Positions 32,931-58,240 of a stretch of 64,000 nucleotides of DNA are shown here, piece by piece. Made by a program: the position numbers and the translations under genes. This DNA is from Candidatus Hadarchaeota archaeon. GTDB taxonomy: Archaea; CAYQAE01; CAYVLA01. Each line of letters opens with the position of its first letter. Position 1 is the stretch's first letter. The notes under the pieces are model-generated. The model was not told where the DNA came from. It saw only the letters and a list, made by a program, of their open reading frames with translations, and ran no database searches. The stretch lies in contig CAYVLA010000006.1 of the NCBI GenBank assembly GCA_964452145.1, positions 16,409-80,408 on the forward strand, read 5' to 3'.

Positions 32931-34256
32931 TCAGCGGCCGCTGGAATCCCGAGACACCGCTTCGCTGAGCCGGGTGCTCTCAACCGGCCTGTACAGTCTT
33001 CTTCTGACCATGAGACTCCACACAGTCACGCTGCAGATCAGGACTGTGGAGGAAACGGCGATCCATTCGAAGACGAATATCCACAGAAGGGTCCTTCTCT
33101 TCAGATCCGCAAGATGGTCCTCGATGATGGGATAGGCCTCCATGACCGCGCGGAGGAGTTCGGACGCCAATGCGATATCCCCTGTCAGGTACTTCCGCTC
33201 CGCTTCCGAGACGGCGGGGCCAAGGAGTCTGAGTTCCTCCTCGATCCGGTCCAGCCTAGCTCCCAACTTGTCAACGAATTCCATCGTCGACAGCGTCACC
33301 GACTTCCGCGTACGCACATCGATGAAGAGCTCCCTGGTCCTGTGGGCAAGCTCAAGGTCCTCGGGGGGAAGAATATCTGCAAGGAAGTAGATCTGGTTGT
33401 ATGTCAGGTCGGGCATGTACCTGTAGTTCTGGAATACGTGTTCGGGCGGATTGTGCCAGCCCTGTCCCAGCTGTAGCGTCCTTCCCGATCCATAGGTGCC
33501 TGTGACCAGAACCGGCGTATTCCTGCCCTTCCATATCGCGTGGACCACGCTGCCCGGCCTAGGCCATATGTCGCCGCCGTGGTTGCCCAGTACCTGCATG
33601 GGCTGTTTCTCGATATCGGGTAGGTTGAGTATCGGATCCTTCTTCACCACGGTCCAGTAGGTTCTTCCCATCTGTGATGGCACATCCGTGCCTAGATCGA
33701 CGTCGGCAGGAAACACGTCATAGAATGCAAGGTCCATCCAGATCCCGATCTGATTGCTGCCCGCACCGGCCCCCCAGAACATGAAGCAGATGAGCCCCAC
33801 ACCCAGCCCCTCTTCCTCGAGAGCTCGGTGAATGAAGCCCAGAACATTGCTCGGGATGATGGTGGGAGAGATGTTGTGGATTATCACGGCATCATAGCTC
33901 CCGTTCAGGGCCTGGTATGTCCTGGGCAGGTACAGCCGGGTCATCTTCTGGGCCACGGGGAGATCGATGAAGTAAACGTCGCAGGGCACGACGACCATGG
34001 AGAGCTTCGGCTCCGCCATGATCCACTGGAGCACAAGCTTGTTGGGCGGGAAGGAGGCATCCCCGAGATACAGGATCCTAGCCTTCAACGTGTGTTCATC
34101 GGTGCGCGAGAAGGCGGCGGTCAGACAGATCCAGGCCGGGCAGATGATGAATATGAGGGCAATGGCGGGTCTTGCGATCCGGGAGGCCACGCAGGGACAT
34201 CTGCCGGGAACCATAGATAATGATTTTCCGGATTCGAGCTGACGCAAGGTCCGCAT
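32931..34256 (-). CDS. Membrane-anchored GATase1-like surface protein, paralog 1 of 6
   Basis: Hydrophobic signal (IALIFIICPAWICLTAA), RLYLPRTY motif, helical bundle, and C-terminal LLWIFVFEW...WSLMVRRRLYRPVESTR. Start uncertain. Confidence 0.8.
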   Translation of the reverse strand: MRTLRQLESGKSLSMVPGRCPCVASRIARPAIALIFIICPAWICLTAAFSRTDEHTLKARILYLGDASFPPNKLVLQWIMAEPKLSMVVVPCDVYFIDLPVAQKMTRLYLPRTYQALNGSYDAVIIHNISPTIIPSNVLGFIHRALEEEGLGVGLICFMFWGAGAGSNQIGIWMDLAFYDVFPADVDLGTDVPSQMGRTYWTVVKKDPILNLPDIEKQPMQVLGNHGGDIWPRPGSVVHAIWKGRNTPVLVTGTYGSGRTLQLGQGWHNPPEHVFQNYRYMPDLTYNQIYFLADILPPEDLELAHRTRELFIDVRTRKSVTLSTMEFVDKLGARLDRIEEELRLLGPAVSEAERKYLTGDIALASELLRAVMEAYPIIEDHLADLKRRTLLWIFVFEWIAVSSTVLICSVTVWSLMVRRRLYRPVESTRLSEAVSRDSSGR

Positions 34257-34370
34257 GGCGTCCGGCAGACGTATTACGATACGAGCGACTGTTGTAGCAG
34301 GCAGGGCAGAAGACAATTCGGCGCTTTCCCAGCGTCAGCATTCGTCACCGAAATTCTGGCATTCACGGAT

Positions 34371-35498
34371 CTAGGGCGGCACCGGCCCCTTCGACACTCC
34401 CTGCCCATGCAGGACAAGTGAACGGATCTCCTTCACGCCCATTCCGGTGAGGCCAAGCTTCTCGACGGTTCTCCCTTCGCTCCAGTAGTCGGTGGCGTTC
34501 AGAAGAGACGCAACATGCACAGAAGCGTCTATCGTGGGAGTAGGCACGTTCAGCAGATCGCCCAGCGATGACATGGGAACCAGGCTCATCGGCACATCCT
34601 CAAACACGTAGCGATGGACGAGGCTGGACGGAGCTTTGACTCCTTGGTACCCAGGGGTTGCCTGTATGGCTTCGTAGAGAGATCTCCCGGGGGAATCGTA
34701 TGCAAGGTACAACCACTGCCGGGCCGTGTGCAGGTGGACGCCCAGAGCCTCCCCCAGAGCAACTCGTTCACGATCGAGGGACTCCAAGACCCTGGCGACG
34801 GACCGGGTCACTCCCTCGATGTAGAACTCGAAATCGGTGTGTTCGTCCTCGATTCGACCCGCATTGAGAATAGCGGTCCCGGGGTGGAAGATAGCGCCTA
34901 TGTTGTCCAGGCTTGTCTCCAATACGTTTGTTGCTGCGACAAACTGCGGGAACACCTTCCTGATGACCGCAAGGATCTGCGGGGTCTTGTGAGCCGGTAT
35001 GGCGGCCAGGGGGACCGAGTTCTTGATCCTGAGTATTCTGGCTCTGGCGAAGTCCTCGTGCCTCGAGACGTAGAGCAGGGTCTGCGTCTCGGCAACGATC
35101 ACATCGGCATCAACCTTTCTCTCTTCCCTTAAGACATGCAGGAACTCTACGGCTCCGAAGGTCCTGCCTGGGTTCAGAACGACGATCTGCCCGTCTTTCA
35201 GGTGCGATGCGCACTGTTCTGCCATGAACCTGTGACCCATCGCAGGGACGACGACCATAATGATGTCGGCGTCTTCCACGGCCTCCCCTATGTCGTGGGT
35301 TGCGTTGACTGCTGCCTGCCCTTTCACTGCACCGTCAACTTCGATCGCTCCGCGTGCCCGAATGTAGTCAATCCTTTCCGGACTGCGAGTGTAGACGCTC
35401 ACCGGATGGCCCATGATCGCCAGATGCCCTGCCATCGCCAGGCCTCCGTGACCAGCACCCAGCACAGCGAATTTGGGATTCTTCTCAGTTGCGGACAT
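34371..35498 (-). CDS. NAD(P)-dependent opine (octopine/nopaline-type) dehydrogenase family protein
   Basis: FAVLGAGHGG Rossmann motif, VLNPGRTFG, NIGAIFHP and RYVFEDVP motifs. ATG 35498 chosen. Confidence 0.9.
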   Translation of the reverse strand: MSATEKNPKFAVLGAGHGGLAMAGHLAIMGHPVSVYTRSPERIDYIRARGAIEVDGAVKGQAAVNATHDIGEAVEDADIIMVVVPAMGHRFMAEQCASHLKDGQIVVLNPGRTFGAVEFLHVLREERKVDADVIVAETQTLLYVSRHEDFARARILRIKNSVPLAAIPAHKTPQILAVIRKVFPQFVAATNVLETSLDNIGAIFHPGTAILNAGRIEDEHTDFEFYIEGVTRSVARVLESLDRERVALGEALGVHLHTARQWLYLAYDSPGRSLYEAIQATPGYQGVKAPSSLVHRYVFEDVPMSLVPMSSLGDLLNVPTPTIDASVHVASLLNATDYWSEGRTVEKLGLTGMGVKEIRSLVLHGQGVSKGPVPP

Positions 35499-35736
35499 AA
35501 CACGAGCCTGCAAGGTGCATATCTCCTTCCGGGCTAATATACATTCCCGGCCGGTGATCGGTGCCATGCTGTGCAACAGAATGGGCCATCGGACAGCGCG
35601 GTTAGGACTCAGACACTGCCGAGCAGATCTACTCACCCTATCATCGACGGCACCACGGACACACGTGGTGAGCCCGAGCTCAGCCGAATGACCCATTTGA
35701 CCGGAATCCGCGCGGATTGCCCCGCTCTCATTCCGC

Positions 35737-37398
35737 CTAGGAGATATCGCGCTGGACCCTTCTGATCCTTTCCCTTTCAGGCATTTTGTGAGCCGTCTTA
35801 GGGTCAACCGCGTAGCATGCTCCATCGATCATCCGTGTCTGGATCGAGCCCTTCGCATACTCGTTGCCCTTCAGATGCGGAGCGTCGAGGAGCCCCGTCT
35901 CAACCGCCCTCTTCAGAGTTGCGGGATCTGTCCACGGATCCTTCACATCCTCGTCGGCCAGACTCCTTATGGCCTCCAACAGAGTCCCCGCCTCTGCGAG
36001 CAGTTCCTCCTTCCGGGCCTGAACCCGAGGATCCAGCGTCACGTCGGGTAGTCCGCGTATGCAGTTGCTGATCACCCGTCTTGCGATCTTGCAGCTCTCC
36101 ACCACATCTTCGGGTGTTGCCGCGTGGTCGGCTTCGCAGTAGCCAACTACGTGGACTATCTCGGGTCCCAAGGCCATCTGCTGCATCACGGAGGATGCAA
36201 GGTGGCCCTTTGCCTCCGACATGTCTGATGGGTAGCTGAGCAGCCCCGTTCTGGTCTGCGTATGGATTGTGAAATCATCGTCAACCAAGCTCTGCGTTAT
36301 GTCCTTCTTGGCCAATTGCTTGGCCAAGTCCATCAAGAAGGACTCTCCAGGAGGCAGGTTGAACATGCGAGTTCCCACATAGTGCCGAACTCCCATCCTC
36401 TTGGCGTTGTATGCGCTTAGGAACTCGACCGCGACGGCGATCGTGTCAGAAGAAGACCGTAGCTCCCAGTGATGGGGCTCATTCAACTCCACCGGGATGT
36501 CCCTCTCGCCATGCCATCTCATCAGTTCTTGATGAACCCTGATGGCCTCCTCAAGCGCCAGCGGGCCTCGCTTGTCCAGCCTGCTGAACCAGAAGAGAGG
36601 TATGGCAGCGAAGCAGTTCCGGATGGTTTCGACCAGCATCTCAGCCATCTCGAACAGATCGCTGGTGCCTTGGTAGCATCTCAGCAAGGGATGATTGCCG
36701 CACCGGGTCGCACTGTATAGCTCGACGAAATCGTCGCGCGTTCTGAGAGGCACGCCTCCGGCGCCCTTCCTTTGCGGGTCCTGTCTATCGGGATGGAAGA
36801 GGTTCTCCTGTGCGTCCTGATCCGGTGCAATGGATATGATGTCGACCGTCTTGGACTCCGCGATCCTCCGGATTCCTCGGAAGGTCTCTTCAAGCGACGG
36901 GAGTCCGAAATGATGCCGGATTACCGGGTAAGGCCTCTTCCACTCAATCCTGTCGACCAAGGTACTCGGGTACGATTCCGAAGCGGGGCCTGCCCGCTCC
37001 TGGGTTCTCAGATAGGATATGACGTCATCCACGGGTTCGGTTCCGTCGAAGACTGCCTCGAAGATGCCCATATCCCTGGCAACCTTGGCTACAGGAGGGG
37101 TCCCGCCGAAGGCATATTTCCTTTCAAGCAGACCAGCCTCTCTGAGCGCGTTCTTCAGGGACGCCAAATGGTAGCTGCCCGATTCCGGGCTCAGCCTGTA
37201 GCTGACGCCGACTATGTAGGGGTCTGCCTCGCGGATTGCGCCCACGAGTTCCCTGGGAGACAGCGCGGCACCCAGGAAAGAGGTCCGGTACCCATACTGC
37301 TCCGCGAGGTTCAGGAAGTTGAAGATTCCGGCCACATGAATGTCCTCGCCTATGGCACCAGCAACAATGATTCGTCTAGGCTTCCGCCGGGCACTCAA
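35737..37398 (-). CDS. Single-chain cobalamin-dependent mutase-like enzyme (N-terminal B12-binding Rossmann domain + TIM barrel)
   Basis: EDIHVAG (DxHxxG), VSYRL and FGGT B12-domain motifs, followed by a catalytic-type barrel (PVIRHHFG, KGAGGVP, HHWELR, HIVHVV-like EIVHVVGYCEA). TTG start with AGGTGG RBS. Confidence 0.85.
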   Translation of the reverse strand: MSARRKPRRIIVAGAIGEDIHVAGIFNFLNLAEQYGYRTSFLGAALSPRELVGAIREADPYIVGVSYRLSPESGSYHLASLKNALREAGLLERKYAFGGTPPVAKVARDMGIFEAVFDGTEPVDDVISYLRTQERAGPASESYPSTLVDRIEWKRPYPVIRHHFGLPSLEETFRGIRRIAESKTVDIISIAPDQDAQENLFHPDRQDPQRKGAGGVPLRTRDDFVELYSATRCGNHPLLRCYQGTSDLFEMAEMLVETIRNCFAAIPLFWFSRLDKRGPLALEEAIRVHQELMRWHGERDIPVELNEPHHWELRSSSDTIAVAVEFLSAYNAKRMGVRHYVGTRMFNLPPGESFLMDLAKQLAKKDITQSLVDDDFTIHTQTRTGLLSYPSDMSEAKGHLASSVMQQMALGPEIVHVVGYCEADHAATPEDVVESCKIARRVISNCIRGLPDVTLDPRVQARKEELLAEAGTLLEAIRSLADEDVKDPWTDPATLKRAVETGLLDAPHLKGNEYAKGSIQTRMIDGACYAVDPKTAHKMPERERIRRVQRDIS

Positions 37399-37438
37399 GG
37401 TTCCACCTTGCTCTGATGATATTCCTCATATGGGTCCT

Positions 37439-38830
37439 TCACAGTTCACGTAAATACTTTTTCATCATCCTCAACGAAGAATCAGGAGCAGCGAAAGAGA
37501 GCAGACCCATTGCCCACATGATGTACTCCTCGTCCACAAACAGCCTGGGCCGTTTCGGTTTGAGCAACAGCGGGTTGTCGCCGCGAGAGCAGGCCTCCTC
37601 CAATATTCTACGCGGATTCCAGCTGTGAACTATCGGGCCTCCAGTGCCGATCACACTTCCGATGTTGCTCAGGTCTTTGCCCTCCTGTATCAGGAACGAT
37701 CCGGAGGGGCTGAACATCTCCCGCAGTTTCCCAACATGCCTTGTCACGGCAACATCGACAGCGACCCGTGCCAGGGCCTGGTCGATCTGGTAATCCTCCC
37801 TTGTTCGGGGAACCCGTCCCACGTTGAGAGAAAGCTCGGCTATTCTGTCTTTGAGTTCGTCCTCGCTGATTCCGAGACCAGTCATTTCCAGGATCTTGCT
37901 GGCACCGCACACCTTCAGAAGGGAATCCACGCTGACGCGCAACCCCATATCCCCCTCAACCGTTCTCTTGGCATAGGGCTCGGGGAGGCCTCTAAGGATC
38001 GTTCTGGAATGGGTTGGGTTTCCTTCGGATACGGAGTGGATATTCGTGGTCGCTCCCCCAACCTCGACCACCATCAGGTCTCCCAAGCCGGATTCCGCTT
38101 CAGTGCCATCTGCGAGCAACTCAGAGGCCTTCAACGTAGCCGATGGTGTGGGCAGAAGGATGTGAACGAGGTCCTCCACCTGGCTCAGTCCCTTGGCGCG
38201 GACTATCCGCTCCAAGAATACTTCCCGGATCATCTCCCTTGCCGGCTCTATGTTCAACTCCCCAAGCTCGGGCATCACGTTCTCCGTCTCCCTCACCTCT
38301 TTTCCACTCGATCGTAGAACGCCCGCCACATCATCCCTCGCCTCCTTGTTTCCGGCCACAATTACCGGCACTTGAAGCGTAGAGCCCGCAAGAACCCGGG
38401 CATTGTGCAGGATCACCTTCGTATCGCCCCCATCGATGCCCCCGGAAAGCAGTACGATGTCCGGCTCCAAGTCCTCTATCTCCCGCAGTTCACGGATCGT
38501 CAACCCGTAGGAAAAGGCAGCCAAGACCTTTGCTCCGGCACCTAAGGACGCCCTCCTTGCAGCCTCTGCAGTGAGCTCGGGAACGAGCCCGACGGCTATC
38601 ACCTTCAAGCCCCCCTTGGCGCTGCTGCAGGCGAGTTTGTGGTCGAAGCCATACGAGCTCAGCTCCGAGAACTGAGGGATCTGATCGAGGCTTTTTCTAA
38701 GGCCGTCCATTATGTCCGTGGTCGCTGTCGTCACTGCTTTCGATTCTGCAACTATCGTCTCCCTCTCCGGGTTCGCAATCACGACCTTGGTGAACGTGCT
38801 GCCGAGATCGATCAACAAGGCCAGACTCAA
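37439..38830 (-). CDS. glmL: GlmL/MutL-type ATP-dependent mutase reactivating factor (ASKHA fold)
   Basis: LLIDLGSTFTK, ACSSAKGGL, VEVGGATT, RTVEGDMG and VIGTGG motifs. GGAGGTG RBS before TTG. Confidence 0.88.
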   Translation of the reverse strand: MSLALLIDLGSTFTKVVIANPERETIVAESKAVTTATTDIMDGLRKSLDQIPQFSELSSYGFDHKLACSSAKGGLKVIAVGLVPELTAEAARRASLGAGAKVLAAFSYGLTIRELREIEDLEPDIVLLSGGIDGGDTKVILHNARVLAGSTLQVPVIVAGNKEARDDVAGVLRSSGKEVRETENVMPELGELNIEPAREMIREVFLERIVRAKGLSQVEDLVHILLPTPSATLKASELLADGTEAESGLGDLMVVEVGGATTNIHSVSEGNPTHSRTILRGLPEPYAKRTVEGDMGLRVSVDSLLKVCGASKILEMTGLGISEDELKDRIAELSLNVGRVPRTREDYQIDQALARVAVDVAVTRHVGKLREMFSPSGSFLIQEGKDLSNIGSVIGTGGPIVHSWNPRRILEEACSRGDNPLLLKPKRPRLFVDEEYIMWAMGLLSFAAPDSSLRMMKKYLREL

Positions 38831-38925
38831 AGACTTGACACCTCCTCAGCCAGTTCGGATACCCTCGAGAGATGGGGGCTCTTGGCGAACTCCTCGCTTC
38901 TGCGCTTGACTTCCTGCAACGACAA

Positions 38926-39882: not shown

Positions 39883-40188
39883 TGCTCCGGTGCCAACGCA
39901 GTGATGATTTCTGGAACAATTATCAGAATCATGTCATTCGAGAAATCCGTCCATCAAGGTAACTGCATACCTCACTCTCCTCACTGCTGACCAGCAACAG
40001 AACAGGAGAGCCATCTTCCAGCAACACCCCACGCCCAATCTGGCCTGGGACATCATCGCCCCAAGTCGATGAAGAGTTGTCCTAGGCCTTTGGCCGATCT
40101 CGGGTAGGGCAGACGGCTGGTGGGCTGGTCTGTTAACTATATTAGACGGGTGCCGCATCTCTCAAGCCGGGGCGGAGGAACGACAGAC

Positions 40189-41388
40189 ATGCGTCACAGG
40201 AAACATGCCCACACCCGCGTCTCCCTGACAATCGCTCTCCTGACGATGCCAGGACTCCTTCCGGTCTGCTTGGGAGCCGAGATCCCGAGGGTATACTACA
40301 TCGGGGACTGCAAGCCCACCACGAGCCCGATAAACATCGTGAGCGATGATCCGGCTCTCCACGTCGTTGCGGTGCCGGCGGTGATCGGCACGGTCTGGTG
40401 GACCTCCAAGGAGGTGGCACGCGCCCTGAGACTGTATATGCCTAGGAACTACGAGGAACTGGTCGAGACCAGGGTGCTGATCCTCCTCAGCGATGTCAAG
40501 GCCGAGAACCTGCCCGGCTTCCACATCGACTGGTTCTCGAAGGCGGTTAGACAGGACGGCATGTCGCTCATGATGTTCGGCGGGATATCCTCCTTCGGCG
40601 GGCATGCCGGATTCCCCTCAGCATGGGGCCAGACGAGCGTGGGGGAGATCCTCCCCGTTTCCCTCATCCTTGAGGCAACCGGGCCGGGCCCGTGGACGCC
40701 GGTGGTGACTTCTCCGGACGACCCGCTCATGCTCGCGTTTCCGTGGGATTCTTGTCCGCCCTTCTACGGGTACAACAGGGTGACCCGGAAGGAGGGAGCC
40801 AAGCTGCTTGCCCAGACCAGCAACACGGCGGAACCCTTCATGATCGTATGGGATGTTGGGCCCGGGCGGAGCTTCGCCTTCTGCACCGACTGGACGCCGG
40901 ACTGGGGTAAATCCTTCCAGCTCTGGGACCCATACATCGACTTCTGCGTCTACTCGATATACTACACGATGGGCAGGATGATACCGCGGGATATCGAGCT
41001 GGTCCACGTAGTCAGGTCCGAGATGCTCGAGAACCGGGTGAGAACGCAGGTGCTGATCTCGCTGTTGGCACTAGTCGATCAGATGGGCGGCAACGTCCTT
41101 CCGTTGGAGGAGAAGATGAGGGAAGCAGCACTCGTCCGTCGTCAGGCAGACAGCCAATACGTCCTCCAAGAATACGGTTCGGCCCTGACAACGGTCAAGC
41201 AAGCCAACTCCGACCTTGCGGCGATCGAGGGTGAGGCCGTCAGGGTCAAGGCAAGAGCCATGCTGTGGGTATGGATCGTGGAGTGGCTTGTGGTGACATC
41301 GACCCTCATGATCACCGGCGTGGCTGTCTGGAGCCTGATGGTGAGAAGAAAGCTGTATCGCGAAGTAGTGACGACGAGAAGCCCATGA
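40189..41388 (+). CDS. Membrane-anchored GATase1-like surface protein, paralog 2 of 6
   Basis: Signal peptide, RLYMPRNY, GMSLMMFGGISSFGG...W...EILPV (DUF1355-like), and C-terminal AMLWVWIVEW...WSLMVRRKLYREVVTTR. GGAGG RBS. Confidence 0.85.
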   Translation: MRHRKHAHTRVSLTIALLTMPGLLPVCLGAEIPRVYYIGDCKPTTSPINIVSDDPALHVVAVPAVIGTVWWTSKEVARALRLYMPRNYEELVETRVLILLSDVKAENLPGFHIDWFSKAVRQDGMSLMMFGGISSFGGHAGFPSAWGQTSVGEILPVSLILEATGPGPWTPVVTSPDDPLMLAFPWDSCPPFYGYNRVTRKEGAKLLAQTSNTAEPFMIVWDVGPGRSFAFCTDWTPDWGKSFQLWDPYIDFCVYSIYYTMGRMIPRDIELVHVVRSEMLENRVRTQVLISLLALVDQMGGNVLPLEEKMREAALVRRQADSQYVLQEYGSALTTVKQANSDLAAIEGEAVRVKARAMLWVWIVEWLVVTSTLMITGVAVWSLMVRRKLYREVVTTRSP

Positions 41389-45066: not shown

Positions 45067-46398
45067 TTAGAGTTGTCTTGTCACCCCCGTCTCCCTGTAC
45101 AGCCGCCGTCCAACCATCAGGGTCCACGTCGCAACGGCCACCAATCCGAACGTGCCCGTGACGGCACACCACTCCACCGCGTAGACCCAGAACAGGGCTC
45201 TTCCCTTCAAAGCGACCGCCTTCTTCTCGATCGTGTAGATCAGGTCAAAGGCCTCCCGGAGACGGGTCTGACATGACTCGAAGTCCTGAGAGAGATAGTC
45301 CCTTCCCGCCCGATCCACGAGGGAGTCGGCCCCCGCGACCTGTTGCTGCAGGCTCTGGCTGCTTGCGCCGAACTTCTCTACGAAATCCAACAAAGAGTAC
45401 AGAACCCCAACCCTGAGGACGTAGTCCCTGAACCCGCTCCTAAGCCTTTGGACAAGCAGTGGGTCCGATGGCAGCTCCCTTCGGAGCGAATACCAGACTA
45501 TGTTGGTGAAGATGCCCAGCGCGTATCTCTCCTGGCCGTCCCCTCCCCACCAGTATCCCCACATGGGACTCACGAACTGGTCCCCCGTTGCCCAGATCCT
45601 GGAGTTCCTGTCCCCAAATTCCCAAGACAGCAACAACGGGCAACTGGTCTTGCCCAGCTTGAAGGGTATGTCTTTTGCTCTGGCCCATTCCGTGGCGCCT
45701 TCCTTGGCGAAAAGTAGGCGGGTATAACCAAAGGGCTTGACCTTCTCGATTCCAAGGGCCTTGTAGGGCCTGATCACGGGGGCAAGCGATCGGTCGTCCA
45801 CGATCTCGAGGTTGTAGGCTTCTATGTTATCGTGCGAAAGGGAGATGAACCTCTCCTGATCGTGCGGGAAGGCCTTTGACAGGTCCGAGCTCATCCACGG
45901 GACATACATCTCGGGGTACGCGCTCTGAGTAAAGCCGAGGGCACCGACCCCCCGCTCCTTCAAGGCTCGATACATCCACTGGATCTGAATATCATCATGG
46001 TAGTCCAGGAACGGCTGATCGTAGACGAAGAAGTCGTAGACCAGAAGGGCCTCGTACGACCGGGGCATGTATATGCGGATGAACCTGCGAAGCTGCTCAA
46101 TGCTGTAGAGGCCGGCGTGGATGGACCGGGAGACGACCAGCGTCCCCTCCAAGGACGGCTCGGCCCTGAAGAAGTCTGATAAGGGGCTGTAGCTGGGGTC
46201 GACCTGCCCCATGGCGAGCACCTTGATGACGTCCTGACACCATGCTCCAAAAGGAACGATCAGGACCACAAGGACGACGGCAGAAGCCCCTATGCCGAAG
46301 CCCATGCTCATGAAACAGAGGGCTTCCCTTAAATATCGCGAGGCAGCACATCTCTGCACAAGGCCTAGCAAGGGCGAGCCCGTCTGAACGGCCTGCAT
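45067..46398 (-). CDS. Membrane-anchored GATase1-like surface protein, paralog 3 of 6
   Basis: RIYMPRSY, LDFVEKFGA and C-terminal ALFWVYAVEW...WTLMVGRRLYRETGVTR. ATG 46398 lies immediately after the AbrB-like stop. Confidence 0.82.
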   Translation of the reverse strand: MQAVQTGSPLLGLVQRCAASRYLREALCFMSMGFGIGASAVVLVVLIVPFGAWCQDVIKVLAMGQVDPSYSPLSDFFRAEPSLEGTLVVSRSIHAGLYSIEQLRRFIRIYMPRSYEALLVYDFFVYDQPFLDYHDDIQIQWMYRALKERGVGALGFTQSAYPEMYVPWMSSDLSKAFPHDQERFISLSHDNIEAYNLEIVDDRSLAPVIRPYKALGIEKVKPFGYTRLLFAKEGATEWARAKDIPFKLGKTSCPLLLSWEFGDRNSRIWATGDQFVSPMWGYWWGGDGQERYALGIFTNIVWYSLRRELPSDPLLVQRLRSGFRDYVLRVGVLYSLLDFVEKFGASSQSLQQQVAGADSLVDRAGRDYLSQDFESCQTRLREAFDLIYTIEKKAVALKGRALFWVYAVEWCAVTGTFGLVAVATWTLMVGRRLYRETGVTRQL

Positions 46399-46399
46399 T

Positions 46400-46624
46400 T
46401 TACCAGCTTCTGGTGTCGCCGGTTTCTGTGACTCGGCCTCCTCTTCTTTCTTCATCCGTTGCCTGGTACGGTATGACCTTGAGATAGCCGCTTCTTTTCA
46501 CAACGTAAAGCTGCCGCGTCGGGCCAACTTCGGCCTGCCGCCAGTCAGGGGGTAACAGCAGACGCCCCCCCCGGGAATCCATCATCTTCTTCACTTCGAC
46601 ACCATATGACACGATCATCACCAT
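46400..46624 (-). CDS. AbrB/MazE/SpoVT-type DNA-binding protein
   Basis: EVKKMMDSRGGRLLLPPDWR...LYVVKRSGYLKVIP matches the swapped-hairpin D..GR..LP..WR pattern. Confidence 0.65.
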   Translation of the reverse strand: MVMIVSYGVEVKKMMDSRGGRLLLPPDWRQAEVGPTRQLYVVKRSGYLKVIPYQATDEERRGGRVTETGDTRSW

Positions 46625-50431: not shown

Positions 50432-51102
50432 GTGGCCGTGCTCACTTCAAGCAAGGATCTGATATCGAGATGAACGCAGCCACCGAGCCAGCAAGTGACG
50501 TCTGGAGGGATCGACCTGGGTGAGGTATCGGACGCGCGTGGACCTACTTGGACAGGAAGAGGATGACCCGGAGGTATCCGGGTCACGCAGTGCCATGCTT
50601 TCCGTGACCTTGATCCGGATTTGGACGGGGGAACTCAAGACCTGCCCGGGCAGTACCGGGGGCTGCACAGCAACGCACCTAATATCCACATGGGTCTGTT
50701 CTCCAGGCATCTTGGGATGCGCCGGGATATGATGGGATCAATGATGCCCTGTCCTCGAGCCACAATCCGAGGAGGAGTCGTTCTGACTCAACAGGTACGA
50801 TCCAAAGTACCTGTGAGGGCGGAGAGAGTTCGGATTGACTGGCCCCCGATGCTGTGTGACACGCCTCTTCCATATACTCGCCTCTGCCATTGCGGGCTGG
50901 ATCGGCGCAAGCGGGCTCAGCAGGCTGTCGGATGCACCAGGAACCCAATGAAATCAACAACAACGACATCACGAAGGCTGGTCCTAGGAATCTGCTTCGC
51001 CCTCAAGGATCAACTACTGCGAAGATACCTGCCCTCCGCGATCTTCGACGTCGTCCAGATTCACTTTTCAGCCCGCGCCAAAGGCTTCGGACGTCGATCA
51101 CG

Positions 51103-52101
51103 ATGATCGAGAAAAGGCGGATGGAGCAGAGCGGTATCTACGGAACGCTGTGGCGGGCAACGTCGGTAGGAAGGAGTCACCATACCTATTTCACCCACCC
51201 TGTCTGGCTTCCAGACAGCAGCGGACTCATCTTCCTCTCGGATCGGGCGGGAAGTGCGGGATGCTACCTCCTAGAATGGCCGAGCGGTCGCATCACACCG
51301 ATCGCGATGGGTGGAATCACCAGTCCAGTTGTCTCATCGGATGGAGAGTCGATGCTCTATGTCTCCAACCGCTGCATCCTGCGCAGAGACATATCGAGCG
51401 AGGATCGGGAAGTGATTTCCCAGATCCCCGATGAGGCGATTCACTGCGGCCAGATCGGCCAGACCTGTGATGGCCGGTACCTGACCGTCTGCTGCACGGG
51501 AGAGAGGTATTCCCTTCTAGTCAAGGCGCCACGTAAAGGCGGGCACGCGACGATCTTCCATCGAGACCACAGACATCTAAGCCATCTCATACCCTCCACG
51601 GCGCACGCAGCACTTCTCTCAGTTGCTTGGACTCACTGGGCTGGCGGGGAGACCAACCAGAGGCTGTGGATCGTAGCCATTAACGGCAAGGAGATGAGGC
51701 CTCTATATCACCAGAAGAACGGAGAACTGGTCACCCACGAGGCATGGTCGGGCGACGGGCGAATCGCCTTCACGTCCGGACCCTTTGACAGGAAGCCCAA
51801 CACGTTTTCTGTGAAGTCCGTCGACCCGCTGACGGAGAGAACACAGATGCTGGCCGAGCGGGGCAACTTCTGGCATTGTTGCCCGAACCGAGACTGTTCG
51901 ATGGTCGTGGCCGATACGAACTGGCCCGATGACGGAATAAAGCTCATCGACGTCCCCGAATCCGACGTAAAGACCCTTTGTTACTCCAATTCGTCCACGG
52001 CTATTCATCCCCATCCGTGCTTCTCTCCGGACGGCAGGAAGGTCGTTTACACATCGGACCTTTCAGGATCTCCCCAGATCTACGTGGCCGAGTTGCCATG
52101 A
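51103..52101 (+). CDS. Oligogalacturonate lyase (Ogl)-like / TolB-like beta-propeller
   Basis: YFTHPVW, THEAWSGDG, FWHCC and HPHPCFSPDG motifs. Start 51103 or 51121. Confidence 0.75.
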   Translation: MIEKRRMEQSGIYGTLWRATSVGRSHHTYFTHPVWLPDSSGLIFLSDRAGSAGCYLLEWPSGRITPIAMGGITSPVVSSDGESMLYVSNRCILRRDISSEDREVISQIPDEAIHCGQIGQTCDGRYLTVCCTGERYSLLVKAPRKGGHATIFHRDHRHLSHLIPSTAHAALLSVAWTHWAGGETNQRLWIVAINGKEMRPLYHQKNGELVTHEAWSGDGRIAFTSGPFDRKPNTFSVKSVDPLTERTQMLAERGNFWHCCPNRDCSMVVADTNWPDDGIKLIDVPESDVKTLCYSNSSTAIHPHPCFSPDGRKVVYTSDLSGSPQIYVAELP

Positions 52102-52556
52102 TCCGTGCACCCGGCCCAGGCGCAATTCGAATCCCGTGAATCTTGTTCATTGAAGCATTGGAGCCTACGATCACTATCCGAAGGGGACTCCGTAGCAGGG
52201 TGACAGTGAGCCCATCATCCCATGGAAGAGATGCTTTACCACCACCGCTCTCGACATTCCCTCGGCAAAACGTCACAAGACGATATACGTCGTCATAAGA
52301 AAGATAAGATGGCCTCGCATCACTCTAACAGCAAGACCCGGTTTTGGAGGGGTCTCTGGCACATGAGCATGAGATTAGTCTCGGTAATGGCTTTGGCCCT
52401 GGGGGAGGCCAAGATGGCAAGGACGAGATCATGGTGGCGAGGGATGATGATCGTATGATCATAGCCACCGATCTCAACGGGGAAACGCGCATCAGGGAAC
52501 CGGAGGGGTCCGTGCAGTTCCCCGGCAGAGAGGGACGAGAAGGTCTCCGTCGCGAC

Positions 52557-53786
52557 ATGCTTCAGGTCAAGACCGTCGGATCGCCAAGAAGGCAGCACTC
52601 CCTGCTCATGCTTGTTCTCATCTCGGTCTTTCCCGTAGGACTGTGCACACCCAAAGTCGACCCGGCAACCGGAAGGATTCGCATGCTTATGATAGGCGAG
52701 ACCGCGTCATCCCATCAAGATGCCACATACTTCCTCCTGTCCGATCCGATGGTGAGCCTCACTGTGATACCAGCCGGGGATGTCGCCAATGTCGAGACCA
52801 GCAAACGCTTCGTACGCATCTACGTTCCAAGAACGCGGGAGAAGCTCGTCTCAAACTACGACGCAATAGAGCTCTTCGACTTCGTACCCTACATCCTCGA
52901 GGATAAGCACTTCCACTGGATGCACGATGCCGTCGAGGATGAGGGGCTCGGCCTTTCCCTAGTCGAGATGGGGTGGTACGGGGTCACGGACTGGACAGGC
53001 AACGATGCCGAAGCGTGGATGGCCACGGTGCTGTACCAGGCCTATCCGGTTGATCTGGTTGTCGGCAAGCAGAACGCCCTCACACCATACATGGACGTCG
53101 TGTCCGGCCATCCCCTCGTCAATCTTCCCGGCCTTGAAAAGTTCGCGCTCACGGGGGTCGGGAGCCACGGCATCCAGATGGCCAGGGAGGGATCCACGGT
53201 CCATACGGTGTGGCGGACCGGGAGGGAGGACGCCATCGTGGGAGGCACCTACGGGTCGGGCACCACCCTCATCATCCCGATGGGCTGGGACAATGTTCCC
53301 GATGCAACGGAGAGAAACTGGGACTACTACATCGATCTCGTACTGAACCATGCATGCTATGTGGCCAACGTTCCCCTGCCTGATGATCCGAACCTGGCGC
53401 GGGCACTCCGTCTCGGCTTCACCGAATACCGGGCCAGGAGGTCGCTTGCGTCATCCCTCATCGACTTCATAGGCAGGTTCGGTGCCAATACGCTGAAGGT
53501 CGAGAAACTCATCATGGACTTAGAGGAGGAAAGAAGGGTGGCCGAGCAGCTCTATGTCCAAGGCGACCACAGCGCCGCCTGGGAAATGCTGGACCGGGTG
53601 CTGGTGAAATTGCAGGCCGTTTCTCAGGAATCGATGAAGCTCCGGCAGAGGGCTCTCCTCTGGATATACCTAATCGAGTGGCTGGCCATCATGGCCACTC
53701 TCCTAGCATCCACAATGGTTCTCTGGACGTTAATGGTCAGACGGAGGCTGTATAGGCAAGTCGCAGCAACTCGGTCGACCCTCTAG
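52557..53786 (+). CDS. Membrane-anchored GATase1-like surface protein, paralog 4 of 6
   Basis: Signal peptide after ATG 52557, RIYVPRT, LIDFIGRFGA and ALLWIYLIEW...WTLMVRRRLYRQVAATR. Confidence 0.85.
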   Translation: MLQVKTVGSPRRQHSLLMLVLISVFPVGLCTPKVDPATGRIRMLMIGETASSHQDATYFLLSDPMVSLTVIPAGDVANVETSKRFVRIYVPRTREKLVSNYDAIELFDFVPYILEDKHFHWMHDAVEDEGLGLSLVEMGWYGVTDWTGNDAEAWMATVLYQAYPVDLVVGKQNALTPYMDVVSGHPLVNLPGLEKFALTGVGSHGIQMAREGSTVHTVWRTGREDAIVGGTYGSGTTLIIPMGWDNVPDATERNWDYYIDLVLNHACYVANVPLPDDPNLARALRLGFTEYRARRSLASSLIDFIGRFGANTLKVEKLIMDLEEERRVAEQLYVQGDHSAAWEMLDRVLVKLQAVSQESMKLRQRALLWIYLIEWLAIMATLLASTMVLWTLMVRRRLYRQVAATRSTL

Positions 53787-54106
53787 CAGTAGGATCCGAG
53801 GGAACCGCCTCTTGCCTCCGATCCCGTGGCTATCTTTCCGAATGCACAGAAGATGGCTTCTTCGAAGCCATTGAGCAAAGGAGAACCTACATGTGAGCCT
53901 TTCGGCCGCAAGTGCTTCGACCAGGCCACAGATAGATGAGGTGGGCTGCGCCGGGGCATGAAACGATCCTCAGAAGGAAAGGCTTATCTGCGAGAGACCG
54001 ACATGGACAACGACAGCCCCGAGATACGGGATGGTCCCGTCGCCAACCCACGACCATGAAACGCTTTTATCGTACGCAACCCAATTGGGAACGGGATTCC
54101 GAATTG

Positions 54107-54670: not shown

Positions 54671-54918
54671 GACCGAGTCTCCCTCGGAAACCTCCTTACC
54701 CAGCCCCACATCCCAGCCGGGCCGATACGTACCACTTCAAGAACAACGATCGCGTGTCCTCCCGGCCAAAGTCCCCAGTGTCGGTGTATCCCCCCTTCGC
54801 CTCGGTTTCAGACCTACTGATCCGATGAAGTGGAGTGGACCCGGATACCCCCATCCCGGTTCGGTGATTCCTCAGCCGACCAAGGGGGACAAGCCAGATC
54901 CGCCTCCGCTCAACAAAC

Positions 54919-54966
54919 TGGAACGCCAATGGGCTAGAACGCCAATGGATTGGAACGCACGGTGGT
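54919..54966 (+). repeat. Three imperfect 16-bp tandem direct repeats
   Basis: TGGAACGCCAATGGGC / TAGAACGCCAATGGAT / TGGAACGCACGGTGGT, located about 90 nt upstream of GTG 55055. Confidence 0.7.
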
Positions 54967-55054
54967 CCTGGGCCCTCGTCTGTTCCATGCAAGGATTATC
55001 TGCCGTTTCAGGAATACCCGCCCTCCAGAAAAACGGCAAGGGAGGTGAAAAAAA

Positions 55055-55519
55055 GTGAAAGGCAAGATCCTGGCAACAACGATTATTCTCATGTTAGTGT
55101 TCGCTGGCCATGCTTACGCCGATGTCGTGATCCGCAGCAACGATACAAAGGGCGAGGAACCCGAGCCCCCCGATGAGACCATCAACGACAATGCTACCGA
55201 GGCGGAGCCGTGGCTGATAGCGCCCAGTCCCAACGAAGAAGCCAAGGATAGCGACATCGTGGTGTCCGTGGACGAGCAAAGCGAGGAAGAAGCCATGCCC
55301 AGAAATGCCACCACCGACGAACGTGAGACCAGCAACGGGAAAGGTGAAGCACCCGAGGATGACGCAACCATCGGAGTGGATGACTGGCTCATTTCGCCCC
55401 AGGGAGAGGTGGACGACGCCATCTCTGGTGGGAATTCCAGCGTCTACTTATTCGCCGTCCCGCTTGTCTGCGCCGCTTCGGTCGCCTCAATCATAGGCGT
55501 TAGGCGCAGACGCCATTAG
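55055..55519 (+). CDS. Acidic, low-complexity, C-terminally anchored surface glycoprotein
   Basis: GGAGGTGA RBS, signal peptide (ILATTIILMLVFAGHAYA), D/E-rich body with 4 N-x-S/T sequons, and C-terminal TM + RRRRH. Confidence 0.85.
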   Translation: MKGKILATTIILMLVFAGHAYADVVIRSNDTKGEEPEPPDETINDNATEAEPWLIAPSPNEEAKDSDIVVSVDEQSEEEAMPRNATTDERETSNGKGEAPEDDATIGVDDWLISPQGEVDDAISGGNSSVYLFAVPLVCAASVASIIGVRRRRH

Positions 55520-55526
55520 ATCACCA

Positions 55527-55560
55527 GAGGGGGCTTTGCACCCCCTCGCCTTCTTTTTCT
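55527..55560 (+). terminator. Hairpin + oligo-T terminator
   Basis: GAGGGGG-ctttgca-CCCCCTC followed by TTCTTTTT, 8 nt after the stop at 55519. Confidence 0.65.
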
Positions 55561-55638
55561 TAGGAATGTCCTCACATCCGATCCGGCCATGTTGGGCGGT
55601 CCCTAGTGGACTTCTCCCAGCAACGACCCACCCTCGCT

Positions 55639-56877
55639 TCATCCTCCAACAAGCCTGGTTGTCGCGATCTGGCGATAGAATCGTCTCTTCACCATGAGCG
55701 TCCACAGAATGGAAGCCGAGCCAACGCAGGTCCCGGTGATGACCAGATACTCGATGACGAAGACCCACAGAAGGACGCGGTCCTTTGCCCTCAGGACCTC
55801 GTCTAGAAGCGCAAGGGCTTCGGCCTTGGCCTCGTCGAGTCCTGACAGGGCCGACCCATAATCCCCGGAGATGTAGAGATCGCTCGCTGCCAGCCAGCGG
55901 CCATCTATCTCGGCAAGTCTGAGCCCATAGGACGCGGTGGTTGCACCGAATTTCTCCACCCAGTCCATCAGCGACAGTATGATCCCCCTCTGCGTCCTGT
56001 ACTCCCAGAAGCCATCCCTTGCCCGGGCAACGACCACGACGTCCTCAGGCAGCGCTCTGCCCGCGGAGTAGAGGATCAGATTGGACATTACGTCCATCGC
56101 CCAAGGGTTCTCGGACAACCCGTGAATGCTTGCATGCACATCGCCCCACCAGCTGTGGTCAAGGTCGTCAGCCGCCACCCAGCAATGGCCACCGTTGTCA
56201 TCGTACTTCCATTCCAGGATCCACGGTCCGTATTGTCTGGGCACGAGGTTGCCCCAGGCCCTCGTCCCGGTGCGAGGGGCGAGGAATCCACAACCTATTC
56301 CTACAGCCCTTTCAACGCCGAGCTCTACAAAAGGGGTGAACACGGGAGGGAGGCCTTTGACGAATTCGACCCGATACGACCTCGTGGTCCAGGCCATGTT
56401 GATGTTTTTTGACATGTCGTGGGGAACGACCTGTCCCAGAATCGATGACTGAACCGAGTAGAACTCCGGCCCGAAGGTGAAGAAGGATCCGGCCACTCCA
56501 TCTCGGATTGAGTCGTACATCTGCTGGGATTGCTTGCCCGAGAACACCGAGACGTCCGCGTCCACGAAGAAGATCATGGAGAAGCGCCTCAGATCCTCGT
56601 CCGTCCGAGGGAAGTAGAGCCTGACATACCTGGTCTTCATCTCCTCGGTCAGCTTCCCGGCAGGTCCCTCCCTCGTCCTTATCGACACATACTCAAACAG
56701 GGGATCGCTGTCGAACAGAAGGGGCAAGGGGCATTCCTGCGGGTAGACCTCACCTATGAGCAGCATGTGGAGCCTGCGACCATCTCCTCCTGCTCCGGCG
56801 ATTCCCGCCTCGATCTGCAACACCAAGAGCAGGCCGATGCTCCAGAAAACCATCTTCAGCTCCGAACCGTTTCGCAT
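55639..56877 (-). CDS. Membrane-anchored GATase1-like surface protein, paralog 5 of 6
   Basis: Signal peptide, RLYFPRT, LMDWVEKFGA and VLLWVFVIEY...WTLMVKRRFYRQIATTR. Confidence 0.85.
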   Translation of the reverse strand: MRNGSELKMVFWSIGLLLVLQIEAGIAGAGGDGRRLHMLLIGEVYPQECPLPLLFDSDPLFEYVSIRTREGPAGKLTEEMKTRYVRLYFPRTDEDLRRFSMIFFVDADVSVFSGKQSQQMYDSIRDGVAGSFFTFGPEFYSVQSSILGQVVPHDMSKNINMAWTTRSYRVEFVKGLPPVFTPFVELGVERAVGIGCGFLAPRTGTRAWGNLVPRQYGPWILEWKYDDNGGHCWVAADDLDHSWWGDVHASIHGLSENPWAMDVMSNLILYSAGRALPEDVVVVARARDGFWEYRTQRGIILSLMDWVEKFGATTASYGLRLAEIDGRWLAASDLYISGDYGSALSGLDEAKAEALALLDEVLRAKDRVLLWVFVIEYLVITGTCVGSASILWTLMVKRRFYRQIATTRLVGG

Positions 56878-56983
56878 GGATCGACTTCACCAAGTCTGGA
56901 CTTCAGTACTCCCCATGCCTCTGACCCGCGCATCCCGGAGACCGCATGAGACAGAGCCACCATGGGCACCCGCTACGCCAGGC

Positions 56984-58216
56984 TCACTCCTTCGCCGCCG
57001 CGAGTCTGGTCATCTCCACCTTCCGATACAGCTTGCGCCTGATCATGAGCATCCAGAGAACGGATCCCGACATGAAGAGAGCGGACGATGTCACCAGCCA
57101 CTCTATCAGGAATACCCAGAGAAGTGCCTTGTTCTTCTCCCTTCTTGCCACCTCCTCCGCCGCGGGGAATCTGACCAGGGCAGAGCTTATCGACGCCTGG
57201 CTCTCCAAGAAGGCATGCTCAAGATACCGGTGGGTGGCCTCGGCGTAGATCTCCTCAAGGGGGATCATCTCTCGCTCTATGCTTTCGGTGTTGGCCCCGA
57301 ACTTGTCTATGAAGTCCTTCAGCGAGATCAGCACCCTCATCCTGGTCACGAACTCGGCGAAGTCCGACTTCACTCTGTGGAAAACCTCCACATCATCGAT
57401 GAGCTCGGTGTTCGCAAGCCAGAAGATCATGTTCATAACGATCTCGGGTGAGTACTTGTTTTCACCCGTGACGCCGGTGGGGTATGCAAGCCACCCTCCC
57501 GGGAAGGGCGACCCGATCGTCATGGCACGACCCTTGCCATACCACCAAGCGACAAGGTAGGGCTCCTTCTGTGGGTAGTTGCCGCCCTGCCAGGCTAGAA
57601 CGCCTGAACCATCCCTGGCAATCACTAATCTGCTTAGGCCTCCGCGCGCGTTCTCCACGCCGAAAGGCACGAAAGCGGTGAGTATGGGTTCGGGATGGTT
57701 CTTGTTGATCTGGACCCAGTGAGACTCTATCTGGGCCCAAGCGCTGTATCGCGCCGTCACCGCGGGCGCATCGTTGGGAAATGCCTCCCAGGCCACGCCG
57801 GATGCCCATGCCTGCGGCACGCCAGCTATCTGGCTGAAGACGCTTCCATCATTCATTCCGCCCGATCCATCCCAGATGGCGTCGCGGATCCACATGTCTT
57901 GCTTAGGAGTGATGAGTTCGTAGTTGGGCTTGCAGAGGATCAGGACGTCATAGCTCGTCATCTCCTGGTATCTGCGGGGAAAGTAGAGACGGATCAGCTT
58001 GACGAGTTCCGAGTCAGGGACCCGGCCGTCCCAGGTCACGATCACCTTGTACTCCACAGAGGGCTCCCCGTCAAAAAACATCCTCAAAGCATCGACTCGA
58101 CTGTCCTGTACCAGTAGCAGCAGCCTTATCCTTTCGGCTCCGAAGCCGGGCGAGAAGAACACAAGCGTCATGGCGACGGCCAAGCAGAAGACAGCCCTGA
58201 CGGCACGGCAATGCAT
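56984..58216 (-). CDS. Membrane-anchored GATase1-like surface protein, paralog 6 of 6
   Basis: Signal peptide after ATG 58216, RLYFPRRY, LKDFIDKFGA and ALLWVFLIEW...WMLMIRRKLYRKVEMTR. Confidence 0.85.
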   Translation of the reverse strand: MHCRAVRAVFCLAVAMTLVFFSPGFGAERIRLLLLVQDSRVDALRMFFDGEPSVEYKVIVTWDGRVPDSELVKLIRLYFPRRYQEMTSYDVLILCKPNYELITPKQDMWIRDAIWDGSGGMNDGSVFSQIAGVPQAWASGVAWEAFPNDAPAVTARYSAWAQIESHWVQINKNHPEPILTAFVPFGVENARGGLSRLVIARDGSGVLAWQGGNYPQKEPYLVAWWYGKGRAMTIGSPFPGGWLAYPTGVTGENKYSPEIVMNMIFWLANTELIDDVEVFHRVKSDFAEFVTRMRVLISLKDFIDKFGANTESIEREMIPLEEIYAEATHRYLEHAFLESQASISSALVRFPAAEEVARREKNKALLWVFLIEWLVTSSALFMSGSVLWMLMIRRKLYRKVEMTRLAAAKE

Positions 58217-58240
58217 GACGCACGCAACGACGGCAAGCCA

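Follow-up and report, generated by a model that had tools for sequence, protein, structure and literature searches.

What would an archaeon do with dozens of strongly diverged copies of a single membrane-anchored protein? The question is raised by a contig of a Candidatus Hadarchaeota archaeon (CAYVLA010000006.1, assembly GCA_964452145.1), of which we analysed a stretch of 64,000 nucleotides (positions 16,409 to 80,408 of the forward strand; referred to below as the window). An initial annotation had pointed out six dispersed paralogs of a surface protein with a class I glutamine amidotransferase-like (GATase1-like) domain, and had proposed that these are non-catalytic receptors or binding proteins with diversified ligand pockets, possibly connected to the sulfatases and carbohydrate-active enzymes (CAZymes) encoded nearby. 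We found that the six belong to an expanded archaeal family, in which a divergent, presumably exported PF07090/DUF1355-type domain with variable loops is always carried on the same conserved stalk, transmembrane segment and basic tail, and we tentatively read this family as a repertoire of binding modules of diversified specificity.

The open reading frame (ORF) listing has six family members, on both strands and at the positions that had been given initially, although three of those positions (40189, 52557 and 58216) are plausible internal ATG starts of longer ORFs (Table 1). A hidden Markov model (HMM) built from the six copies and run against the six-frame translation of the 64 kb returned exactly six matches (E 1e-152 to 1e-168), and neither fragments nor further main-family copies. 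The paralogs are 22-32% identical to one another (22-31% to copy 1) and share 25 invariant alignment columns. Among these columns are the defined residues (R, Y, P, R) of RxYxPR and, in the transmembrane segment and tail, W, E, W, L, M, R, Y, R, T and R; the motifs R[LI]YxPR and LxDF[VI][DE]KFGA-type that the initial annotation had quoted are indeed present. That annotation had also allowed for the case that the similarity would be confined to the membrane anchor, and this is not so: after removal of the transmembrane segment and tail, the alpha/beta domain alone gave E<0.01 in 10 of the 15 pairs, thereby connecting all six copies, and the stalk alone (about 90 aa) gave E<=0.014 in 15 of 15 (E-values for these segments assume a nominal database of 1e8 residues).

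The AlphaFold2 model of copy 1, based on an alignment of 33 sequences (predicted local distance difference test score, pLDDT, 88.3; predicted TM-score, pTM, 0.81), consists of a helix (residues 14-34), an alpha/beta domain (45-278), three helices (287-316, 322-343 and 347-404) and a short basic tail. The last of the stalk helices (347-404) passes unbroken into the membrane-spanning segment. A hydropathy scan recovered two hydrophobic segments in each of the six copies, one at the N-terminus and the other at the C-terminus, in line with the signal peptide and single anchor described initially. Because basic residues stand before the first and after the last hydrophobic segment, i.e. at their cytoplasmic ends, the domain in between should face outward according to the positive-inside rule.

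The ectodomain, of about 235 aa, belongs to the PF07090/DUF1355 superfamily as a divergent branch, and the core that had been suspected on the basis of the letters is therefore real. The best Foldseek matches of the model within the PDB were 2gk3 (STM3548; E 4.7e-11, target-normalised TM-score 0.70) and 3soz (STM1381; E 5.3e-9, target-normalised TM-score 0.69), followed by true class I amidotransferases and by the GATase-like domains of glycoside hydrolases (7bob, 6t75). A profile of the six copies matched 3soz, 2gk3 and the Planctomyces structure 3rht over about 190 positions (E 4.8e-11, 7.8e-11 and 5.1e-10, respectively). The Pfam model PF07090 (gathering threshold 27 bits) is passed by copy 2 (63.4 bits, E 3e-17) and by none of the other five window copies, for which there was no match at E<=1; among 33 family members five matched at E<=0.1, and otherwise only weak coiled-coil-type matches, such as EzrA, were obtained. 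NCBIfam returned nothing meaningful for the six copies, and the profile of the stalk and transmembrane segment returned only insignificant coiled-coil matches from the PDB (best E 0.011, designed proteins). Pfam, NCBIfam, the PDB profile and the literature thus gave no match to a characterised family with a known function. PF07090 itself is represented by three structural-genomics structures without known function, and we found no paper on its function, so that the homology provides a fold and not a role. The solved members share the homologous alpha/beta domain; however, they are about 250 aa long, were deposited as 'cytoplasmic protein' and have neither stalk nor transmembrane segment, whereas the new family combines an exported domain with a stalk, a transmembrane segment and a basic tail, and has been expanded in archaea to at least 50 copies per genome.

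The initial annotation had further stated that the would-be nucleophile elbow differs in every copy and that none of the copies has the catalytic Cys there. All of the elbow strings it listed (FWGA, MFGG, FTQS, VEMG, FGPE and NDGS) were found, and the absence of a conserved Cys column was upheld; the statement needs correction insofar as a Cys is in fact present in copy 1 shortly before the elbow (LICFMFWG), one that is not conserved even among the copy-1 orthologs (consensus LIxFxFWGG). Among 111 full-length members no column of the ectodomain contains more than 15% Cys or 21% His, the equivalents of the elbow and the His-loop are hypervariable, and the catalytic Cys-His-Glu triad is not there; as to amidotransferase chemistry the family is non-catalytic. 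The solved PF07090 relatives are without the catalytic Cys as well (their elbow reads MIGGYLSF), so its loss is a trait of the wider group and not an innovation of the Hadarchaeota family. A Ser in the ancestral GGxxSFGG elbow was kept in 59 of the 111 members, among which copy 2 (MMFGGISSFGG, i.e. with the complete GG-x-x-S-F-GG), and the remaining members have wholly different elbows. As 47% of the members lack it, four or five of the window's six copies among them, the Ser cannot be the catalytic residue of the family as a whole.

The family extends far beyond six copies and is specific to one lineage, as had been suspected. We scanned one genome per species (185,579 species) for the C-terminal motif, kept the best 80 of 90 confirmed stretches, and found that all 74 loci among these fall within three archaeal metagenome-assembled genomes (MAGs), two of which are labelled Candidatus Hadarchaeota and one 'uncultured Thermococci archaeon'. 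In the 1.1 Mb around these loci the family HMM matched 160 distinct ORFs, and the three MAGs contain at least 56, 48 and 20 copies at >=200 bits, numbers that are lower bounds as the count covers only sequence flanking the motif matches. Of the 1051 genes that were called in the sampled regions, about 14% belong to the family, and its members often adjoin one another. An exhaustive HMMER search against 1.84 billion cluster representatives gave 764 matches at E<=1e-3, of which 275 had E<=1e-30. Nearly all of the top 150 were full-length lookalikes of about 400 aa, and none carried an informative name. The window represents a fourth, related genome, in which each copy is 57-79% identical to its closest MAG counterpart. 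That the MAGs are archaeal is supported by their tRNA genes for Trp, Pro and Ser, which carry introns of 16-18 nt in the anticodon loop and are located no more than a few kb away from family genes (Table 1); by these introns we rejected, for the related MAGs, a bacterial origin in the Planctomycetes-Verrucomicrobia-Chlamydiae (PVC) group that the gene content of the contigs had raised. A contig with a copy-1 ortholog of 73% identity also has genes for TPD, NFACT and, faintly, DUF1616, all of which we take to be typical of archaea. A literature search for the family, for the function of PF07090 and for these MAGs found nothing.

Each of the window copies has an ortholog in at least one MAG that is 57-79% identical to it, as compared to at most 32% identity between the window paralogs, which means that the paralogs are older than the species and were retained individually. 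The orthologs were found at 60% identity for copy 1 (MAG CAZUNO, locus L001; with about 11 metagenomic orthologs at >=55% identity), 60% for copy 2 (CAYWSC, L054), 79% for copy 3 (CAZJVP, L007, where the adjoining M28 peptidase gene was kept too), 67% and 61% for copy 4 (L008 and L009), 73% for copy 5 (CAZUNO, L035) and 61%, 47% and 46% for copy 6, the latter two of which also adjoin genes of the c3 and c6 type (see below). Duplication occurred later as well: in the two larger MAGs the closest paralog within the same genome has a median identity of 47-49%.

Conservation is distributed unevenly over the protein. The blocks of lowest column entropy among the 111 members are the transmembrane segment with the tail (consensus KDxALxWVYxxEWLxVTxT...LWTLMVRRRLYREVxxTR), RxxRxYxPRTY and, within the stalk, FxxxFGAN; elsewhere the ectodomain is near saturation. 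The conserved transmembrane helix (LLWVFxIEW...LWTLMV) is followed by the short cytoplasmic tail RRRLYRxVxxTR, and the stalk with its adjoining helix (residues 266-342) shows essentially no length variation, the stalk itself having zero indels. Identical residues in the C-terminal part are encoded by the same codon in just 48% of the cases, and the longest nucleotide run shared between any two copies is 16 nt; the conservation is therefore at the level of the protein, and gene conversion is ruled out as its cause. The N-terminal domain, the stalk and the transmembrane-tail module always occur together (135 complete genes), the exceptions being fragments at contig edges or resulting from frameshifts, and an HMM of the transmembrane-tail module found it on no other kind of protein in the 1.1 Mb of the three genomes and the window.

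The variable regions are the elbow loop, the His-loop equivalent and three other loops, with lengths after the beta-strands of 11-24 for the elbow, 20-35 for the 169-194 region, 12-30 for the 221-234 region and 18-30 for the His-loop equivalent. Loop identity amounts to 10-16% among the six paralogs versus 59-83% within the 12-member copy-1 orthogroup, where the rest of the domain is 72%, the stalk 62% and the transmembrane-tail module 54% identical. The diversified pocket of the initial annotation has thus been recovered in the sense that the loops equivalent to the active site differ in length and sequence between paralogs and are conserved within an orthogroup. To judge from these alignments, the pattern is the one expected of specificity-determining regions under purifying selection, and not of arms-race variation.

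In the MAGs, some eight genes of the family are broken up over two or three ORFs that adjoin or overlap, with the N-terminal domain in one frame and the stalk and transmembrane segment in another (Table 1). These are either pseudogenes of an actively turning-over family or assembly frameshifts.

There is one gene family that is strongly linked to the main family. It is a second lineage-specific family, which we call c3, and its window representative lies just beyond copy 6. Of the 16 c3 members 14 adjoin a main-family gene (hypergeometric p=4.5e-8), and in 8 of these 14 cases the two are co-directional, with c3 directly downstream at gaps of -13 to +33 nt. The c3 proteins are only about 24% identical to one another and their main-family partners come from several orthogroups, so the pairs, compared at the level of sequence, appear to have co-diversified. 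The AlphaFold2 model of c3 was poor (pLDDT 44). Often, c3 is followed by a third gene, c6. In a profile-profile alignment (hhalign) the c6 family matched the main family over 199 columns with a probability of 95.7% (E 9e-9), and by that measure c6 is a distant seventh paralog with the main-family layout. The listed ORF of the c6 gene in the window starts at GTG 59386, and its signal peptide is encoded upstream in the same frame, immediately behind the stop codon of c3 (TAG 59284-59286). No ATG, GTG or TTG precedes the signal peptide, and a GGAGGTGA motif lies ahead of it, 4 nt before CTG 59302. This CTG is probably the start; read-through from c3 is less likely.

Our preferred reading, which we hold with considerable reserve, is that the family constitutes a repertoire of non-catalytic binding modules, diversified in specificity and mounted on a constant membrane module. 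Each ectodomain would then recognise an extracellular ligand of its own. Given the gene content of the organism, fragments of glycans are the most plausible ligands, i.e. oligosaccharides or other fragments of (sulfated) glycans that would be catabolised by cytoplasmic enzymes. The constant stalk, transmembrane segment and tail would impose one common membrane geometry on all paralogs and would couple them to a shared membrane partner, or to one another as homo- or hetero-oligomers, and in roughly one copy in ten the co-diversifying partner c3 would join the module. The setting is as follows: among exported or membrane proteins the family is the prevailing type in a window full of cytoplasmic sulfatases and glycan-degrading enzymes (Table 1), the initial annotation having been correct in that the neighbouring sulfatases and CAZymes lack N-terminal hydrophobic segments, and on a related contig genes for glycoside hydrolases of families GH29 and GH28 lie beside two family members. 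A gene content that is rich in sulfatases and CAZymes is best known from PVC-type bacteria, and our search for literature on such a content in Hadarchaeota found no paper. In addition, Trp accounts for 9.1% of the residues in the His-loop equivalent versus 1.6% in the other proteins of the same loci; Trp-rich loops would be compatible with carbohydrate binding, and are no proof of it.

Various observations weigh against this reading. PF07090 members have neither a known function nor a known ligand, and it is the sequence pattern by itself that suggests binding; likewise, that the variable loops would line one pocket follows from the equivalence to the GATase fold and not from geometry. The Trp enrichment is partly due to conserved Trp residues, and in the subset of members that kept the elbow Ser (59 of 111) a Ser-based activity is possible. 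The functional tie to the neighbouring enzymes that the initial annotation had envisaged is weak. The 142 flanking genes in the MAGs belong to 127 different Pfam families, with sulfatase being the commonest (7). Sulfatase adjacency (7 of 16, versus a background of 22.5%) is marginal at p=0.046, and a homologous neighbour within three genes is shared by 15 of 49 ortholog pairs (31%, versus 6.5% of random pairs), a share that residual synteny would account for by itself. A dedicated partnership with the neighbouring sulfatases and CAZymes was thus marginally supported at best. No transporter or regulator consistently adjoins the family, genes for ABC (ATP-binding cassette) ATPase-like proteins being adjacent in 0 of 16 cases in the loci, and the window contains no multi-spanning transporter anywhere; the neighbourhoods therefore supply no candidate for a shared membrane partner.

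The repertoire reading can be elaborated into an archaeal surface-receptor system, in which more than 50 stalked binding modules per cell would dock, via the invariant transmembrane segment and tail, on a single machine in the membrane that serves them all (a hetero-oligomeric lattice, or a complex for uptake or signalling). Some of them would act together with co-evolving c3 partners, and as a whole they would capture sulfated glycans for the cytoplasmic sulfatases and CAZymes. In this complete form we consider the system rather unlikely. The analogy to the SusD and surface glycan-binding proteins of Bacteroidota and to archaeal ABC substrate-binding proteins with C-terminal transmembrane anchors would be functional only, in that all are diversified, exported and tethered: the fold is unrelated, no SusC or ABC permease adjoins the new family, and its tether is a rigid helical stalk, not a lipid or a flexible S/T-rich linker.

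Alternatively, the family might comprise envelope coat, adhesion or S-layer-associated proteins, whose diversity would represent surface variation (evasion of viruses or grazers, attachment to different particles) instead of nutrient capture. We regard this as unlikely, even though several features would suit it: a very high copy number with tandem arrays (24 family-family adjacencies), heterogeneous genomic neighbours, the frameshifted copies (about eight), which suggest turnover, and a conserved transmembrane segment and stalk that would lend themselves to the formation of a lattice or oligomer. The layout also resembles that of archaeal envelope anchors such as SlaB of Sulfolobus, which has a signal peptide, globular domains, a coiled coil and a C-terminal transmembrane segment, and is encoded by a single-copy gene. 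A type-I layout with a helical stalk leading into the C-terminal transmembrane segment is common to both, yet the new family has 50 or more divergent copies, and neither Foldseek nor the PDB profile detected sequence or fold similarity to SlaB-type anchors. The variation does not look like that of an arms race, as among orthologs the loops (59-83%) are as conserved as the domain core (72%) or more so. Moreover, every window copy is matched by a stable ortholog in a different species, neither recent gene conversion nor a cassette-like exchange can be seen, and Pfam found no known S-layer domain, nor is there an S/T-rich linker.

Quite unlikely, in our estimate, is that the proteins are membrane-anchored extracellular enzymes with a non-canonical site, such as hydrolases or esterases that would act on glycans or membrane-proximal substrates by means of the elbow Ser or other residues. 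The fold is that of an enzyme, GATase-like domains occur within glycoside hydrolases (Foldseek matches 7bob, 6t75 and 7vkz), the GGxxSFGG elbow with its Ser is common to STM1381, STM3548 and the 59 members mentioned above, the rigid stalk would fix the domain near the membrane, and the surrounding genes are catabolic. This is countered by the members that lack the Ser, by the absence of any conserved Cys or His column in the ectodomain, and by the location of the top conserved polar residues (RxxRxYxPRTY, D269, N273, D286, H291 and R294), which are found in or near the helices that border the stalk and not in the loops equivalent to an active site; furthermore, no member of PF07090 has a demonstrated activity.

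The conservation of the tail leads to yet another possibility, namely that the proteins are transmembrane sensors that relay ligand binding through the rigid stalk and transmembrane segment to a tail that recruits a common cytoplasmic regulator, with one sensor per substrate, loosely like the sensor/regulator pairs of the polysaccharide utilization loci of Bacteroides. It would explain why RRRLYRxVxxTR and the transmembrane segment are, at the protein level, the most conserved part in 111 paralogs and why the stalk is rigid and free of indels, and one copy does lie beside each of several enzyme clusters of the window. We nevertheless hold it to be improbable: the tail comprises just 12-15 residues or so without a recognisable signalling domain, no regulator gene recurrently adjoins the family, and basic residues after a transmembrane segment are equally well explained by topology constraints. 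Finally, an archaeosortase/exosortase-type sorting signal, which would be cleaved and replaced by a lipid anchor and for which the family would be the main substrate set, is very improbable: the C-terminus of the family does have a highly conserved transmembrane segment followed by a basic cluster, and such systems typically have large sets of paralogous substrates, but a general sorting signal was rejected since in the 1.1 Mb of the three genomes the transmembrane-tail module is confined to this family and never occurs without its N-terminal domain and stalk, no Pro/Gly-type signature motif precedes the transmembrane segment (the model has a continuous helix from stalk into membrane), and about 12 conserved residues extend beyond the basic cluster.

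Among proteins with the same flavodoxin-like GATase1 fold, the class I glutamine amidotransferases (carbamoyl phosphate synthetase small subunit, GMP synthase, CTP synthase) were matched by Foldseek at E 1e-5 to 1e-3 (8hx8, 7sbc, 1a9x and 7mh0), from which the new family differs by the lack of the triad, by its predicted extracellular location and its membrane anchor, and by the lack of a synthase partner domain. Closer to the binding role that we favour are the GATase1-like modules of glycan-active proteins (GH42 domain B/Glyco_hydro_42M, GH5 Op5Man5 7bob, GH164 6t75), in which an inactive version of the fold serves binding or oligomerisation in carbohydrate metabolism; in contrast to these, the new family has no attached catalytic domain and no adjoining ABC transporter genes (0 of 16). 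ThuA and the GIFT domain of GldG/IFT52 are non-catalytic GATase1-like modules too, and GldG is anchored in the membrane at both ends. None of 33 members matched PF08532, PF06283 or PF09822 at E<=0.1, and a GldG/ABC_transp_aux-like model was rejected, considering the lack of PF09822 matches and of adjoining ABC-ATPase-like genes.

The stalk-transmembrane-tail module, the export of the PF07090 fold, its expansion to 50 or more copies and its restriction to a small archaeal clade appear to be undescribed. If the repertoire reading is true, the family represents the way in which an uncultured lineage of archaea deals with its surroundings, and it would provide the first functional handle on the PF07090/DUF1355 fold. 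The degradation of sulfated glycans is known mainly from bacteria such as those of the PVC superphylum; an archaeal specialist with a receptor repertoire of its own would be relevant to carbon cycling in anoxic sediments and to the question of how archaea capture polymers without an outer membrane. The shared-machine system would, if true, be an archaeal and evolutionarily independent counterpart of the bacterial Sus-like and substrate-binding protein repertoires. Even if the function differs, the stalk-transmembrane-tail module remains a well-defined conserved element of the membrane, one that apparently had not been described before and is worth a family model of its own. The family and its evolutionary signature point to unexplored surface biology in a sulfatase-rich archaeon, with a function that we infer.

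Table 1. Coordinates of the family members, the linked genes and other features in the window and in related loci. Positions refer to the window (position 1 is its first nucleotide), unless preceded by a locus handle (L number).
Feature	Position	Strand	Remarks
Family copy 1	32931..34316	-	Longest ORF 461 aa; called gene P0001, 427 aa, start ATG 34214
Copy 1, signal/anchor helix	34113-34175		P0001 aa 14-34
Copy 1, alpha/beta GATase1-like domain	33381-34082		P0001 aa 45-278
Copy 1, three-helix stalk	33099-33356		P0001 aa 287-372
Copy 1, transmembrane segment and basic tail	32967-33098		P0001 aa 373-416
Family copy 2	40120..41388	+	Likely start ATG 40189, GGAGG upstream; 399 aa
Family copy 3	45067..46455	-	Start uncertain; ATG 46311 gives 414 aa with N-terminal hydrophobic segment
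Family copy 4	52344..53786	+	Likely start ATG 52557; 409 aa
Family copy 5	55639..56877	-	Called gene P0002, 404 aa, start ATG 56853
Family copy 6	56984..58330	-	Likely start ATG 58216; 410 aa; divergent from the c3/c6 pair
c3 gene	58441..59286	+	281 aa; N-terminal transmembrane helix and beta-rich domain; no Pfam match
c6 gene	59302..60261	+	Signal peptide, GATase1-like domain, coiled coil, C-terminal transmembrane segment; no Pfam match
Further c3 loci	L006:1543-2373, L008:7588-8502, L017:3223-4050
Split family genes	L025:3857-5125, L070:13249-14503, L010:6211-7762, L068:2-1047, L004:5510-6693, L026:4442-5261, L060:7873-9220
tRNA genes with intron, near family genes	L008:16485-16576, L020:14246-14337, L061:2369-2461, L001:12399-12490		Trp-CCA, Pro-CGG, Ser-TGA; ARAGORN intron mode
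Sulfatase	19488-20834		Without N-terminal hydrophobic segment
Sulfatase	61753-63129		Without N-terminal hydrophobic segment
FGE-sulfatase/BNR fusion	5136-7124		Without N-terminal hydrophobic segment
GH116	11789-14254		Without N-terminal hydrophobic segment
GHL6 with GH42M-like domain	14334-16319		Without N-terminal hydrophobic segment
N-acylglucosamine 2-epimerase (AGE)	30772-32298		Without N-terminal hydrophobic segment
PL22-like oligogalacturonate lyase	50890-52101		Without N-terminal hydrophobic segment
FAD_oxidored/HEAT protein	23492-26449		Without N-terminal hydrophobic segment
URO-D-like (PF01208) paralog	3701-4963	-	Divergent
URO-D-like (PF01208) paralog	46804-47820	+	Divergent
URO-D-like (PF01208) paralog	60376-61530	-	Divergent
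Other window enzymes			Glutamate-mutase-like/MutL pair, metallo-beta-lactamase (MBL)-fold protein, M28 peptidase, flavin mononucleotide (FMN) reductase; these and the URO-D-like proteins likewise without N-terminal hydrophobic segment

The window contains several other genes of interest. Directly upstream of copy 1 and on the same strand, the region 34371-38830 (-) encodes an octopine/opine-dehydrogenase-like protein, a fusion of a B12-binding and a glutamate-mutase-E-like domain, and a MutL-type protein (PF13941); the Pfam matches of the former two are below the gathering threshold, and the gene run suggests a B12-dependent mutase pathway. The URO-D-like genes represent another expanded family, as two of the three in the window cluster with 12 genes from the MAG loci in a 14-member cluster. 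Four large ORFs without a Pfam match above noise (518-868 aa), all on the plus strand (10267-11823, 16316-18922, 28633-30762 and 48128-50431), lie amid the CAZyme and sulfatase genes and may encode uncharacterised glycan-active enzymes; two of these have homologs in the MAGs (clusters 18 and 56). Another probable surface protein, of 544 aa, is encoded at 1616-3250 (-) and contains immunoglobulin-like domains (Big_7, Invasin_D3/Big_1), an internal transmembrane segment and a C-terminal zinc ribbon, the tail with this ribbon probably being cytoplasmic. Finally, a gene at 55055-55519 (+), located between the FMN reductase gene and copy 5, encodes a protein of 154 aa that has a hydrophobic segment at either end and is without a Pfam match, and was also found on a Logan contig fragment (L075).

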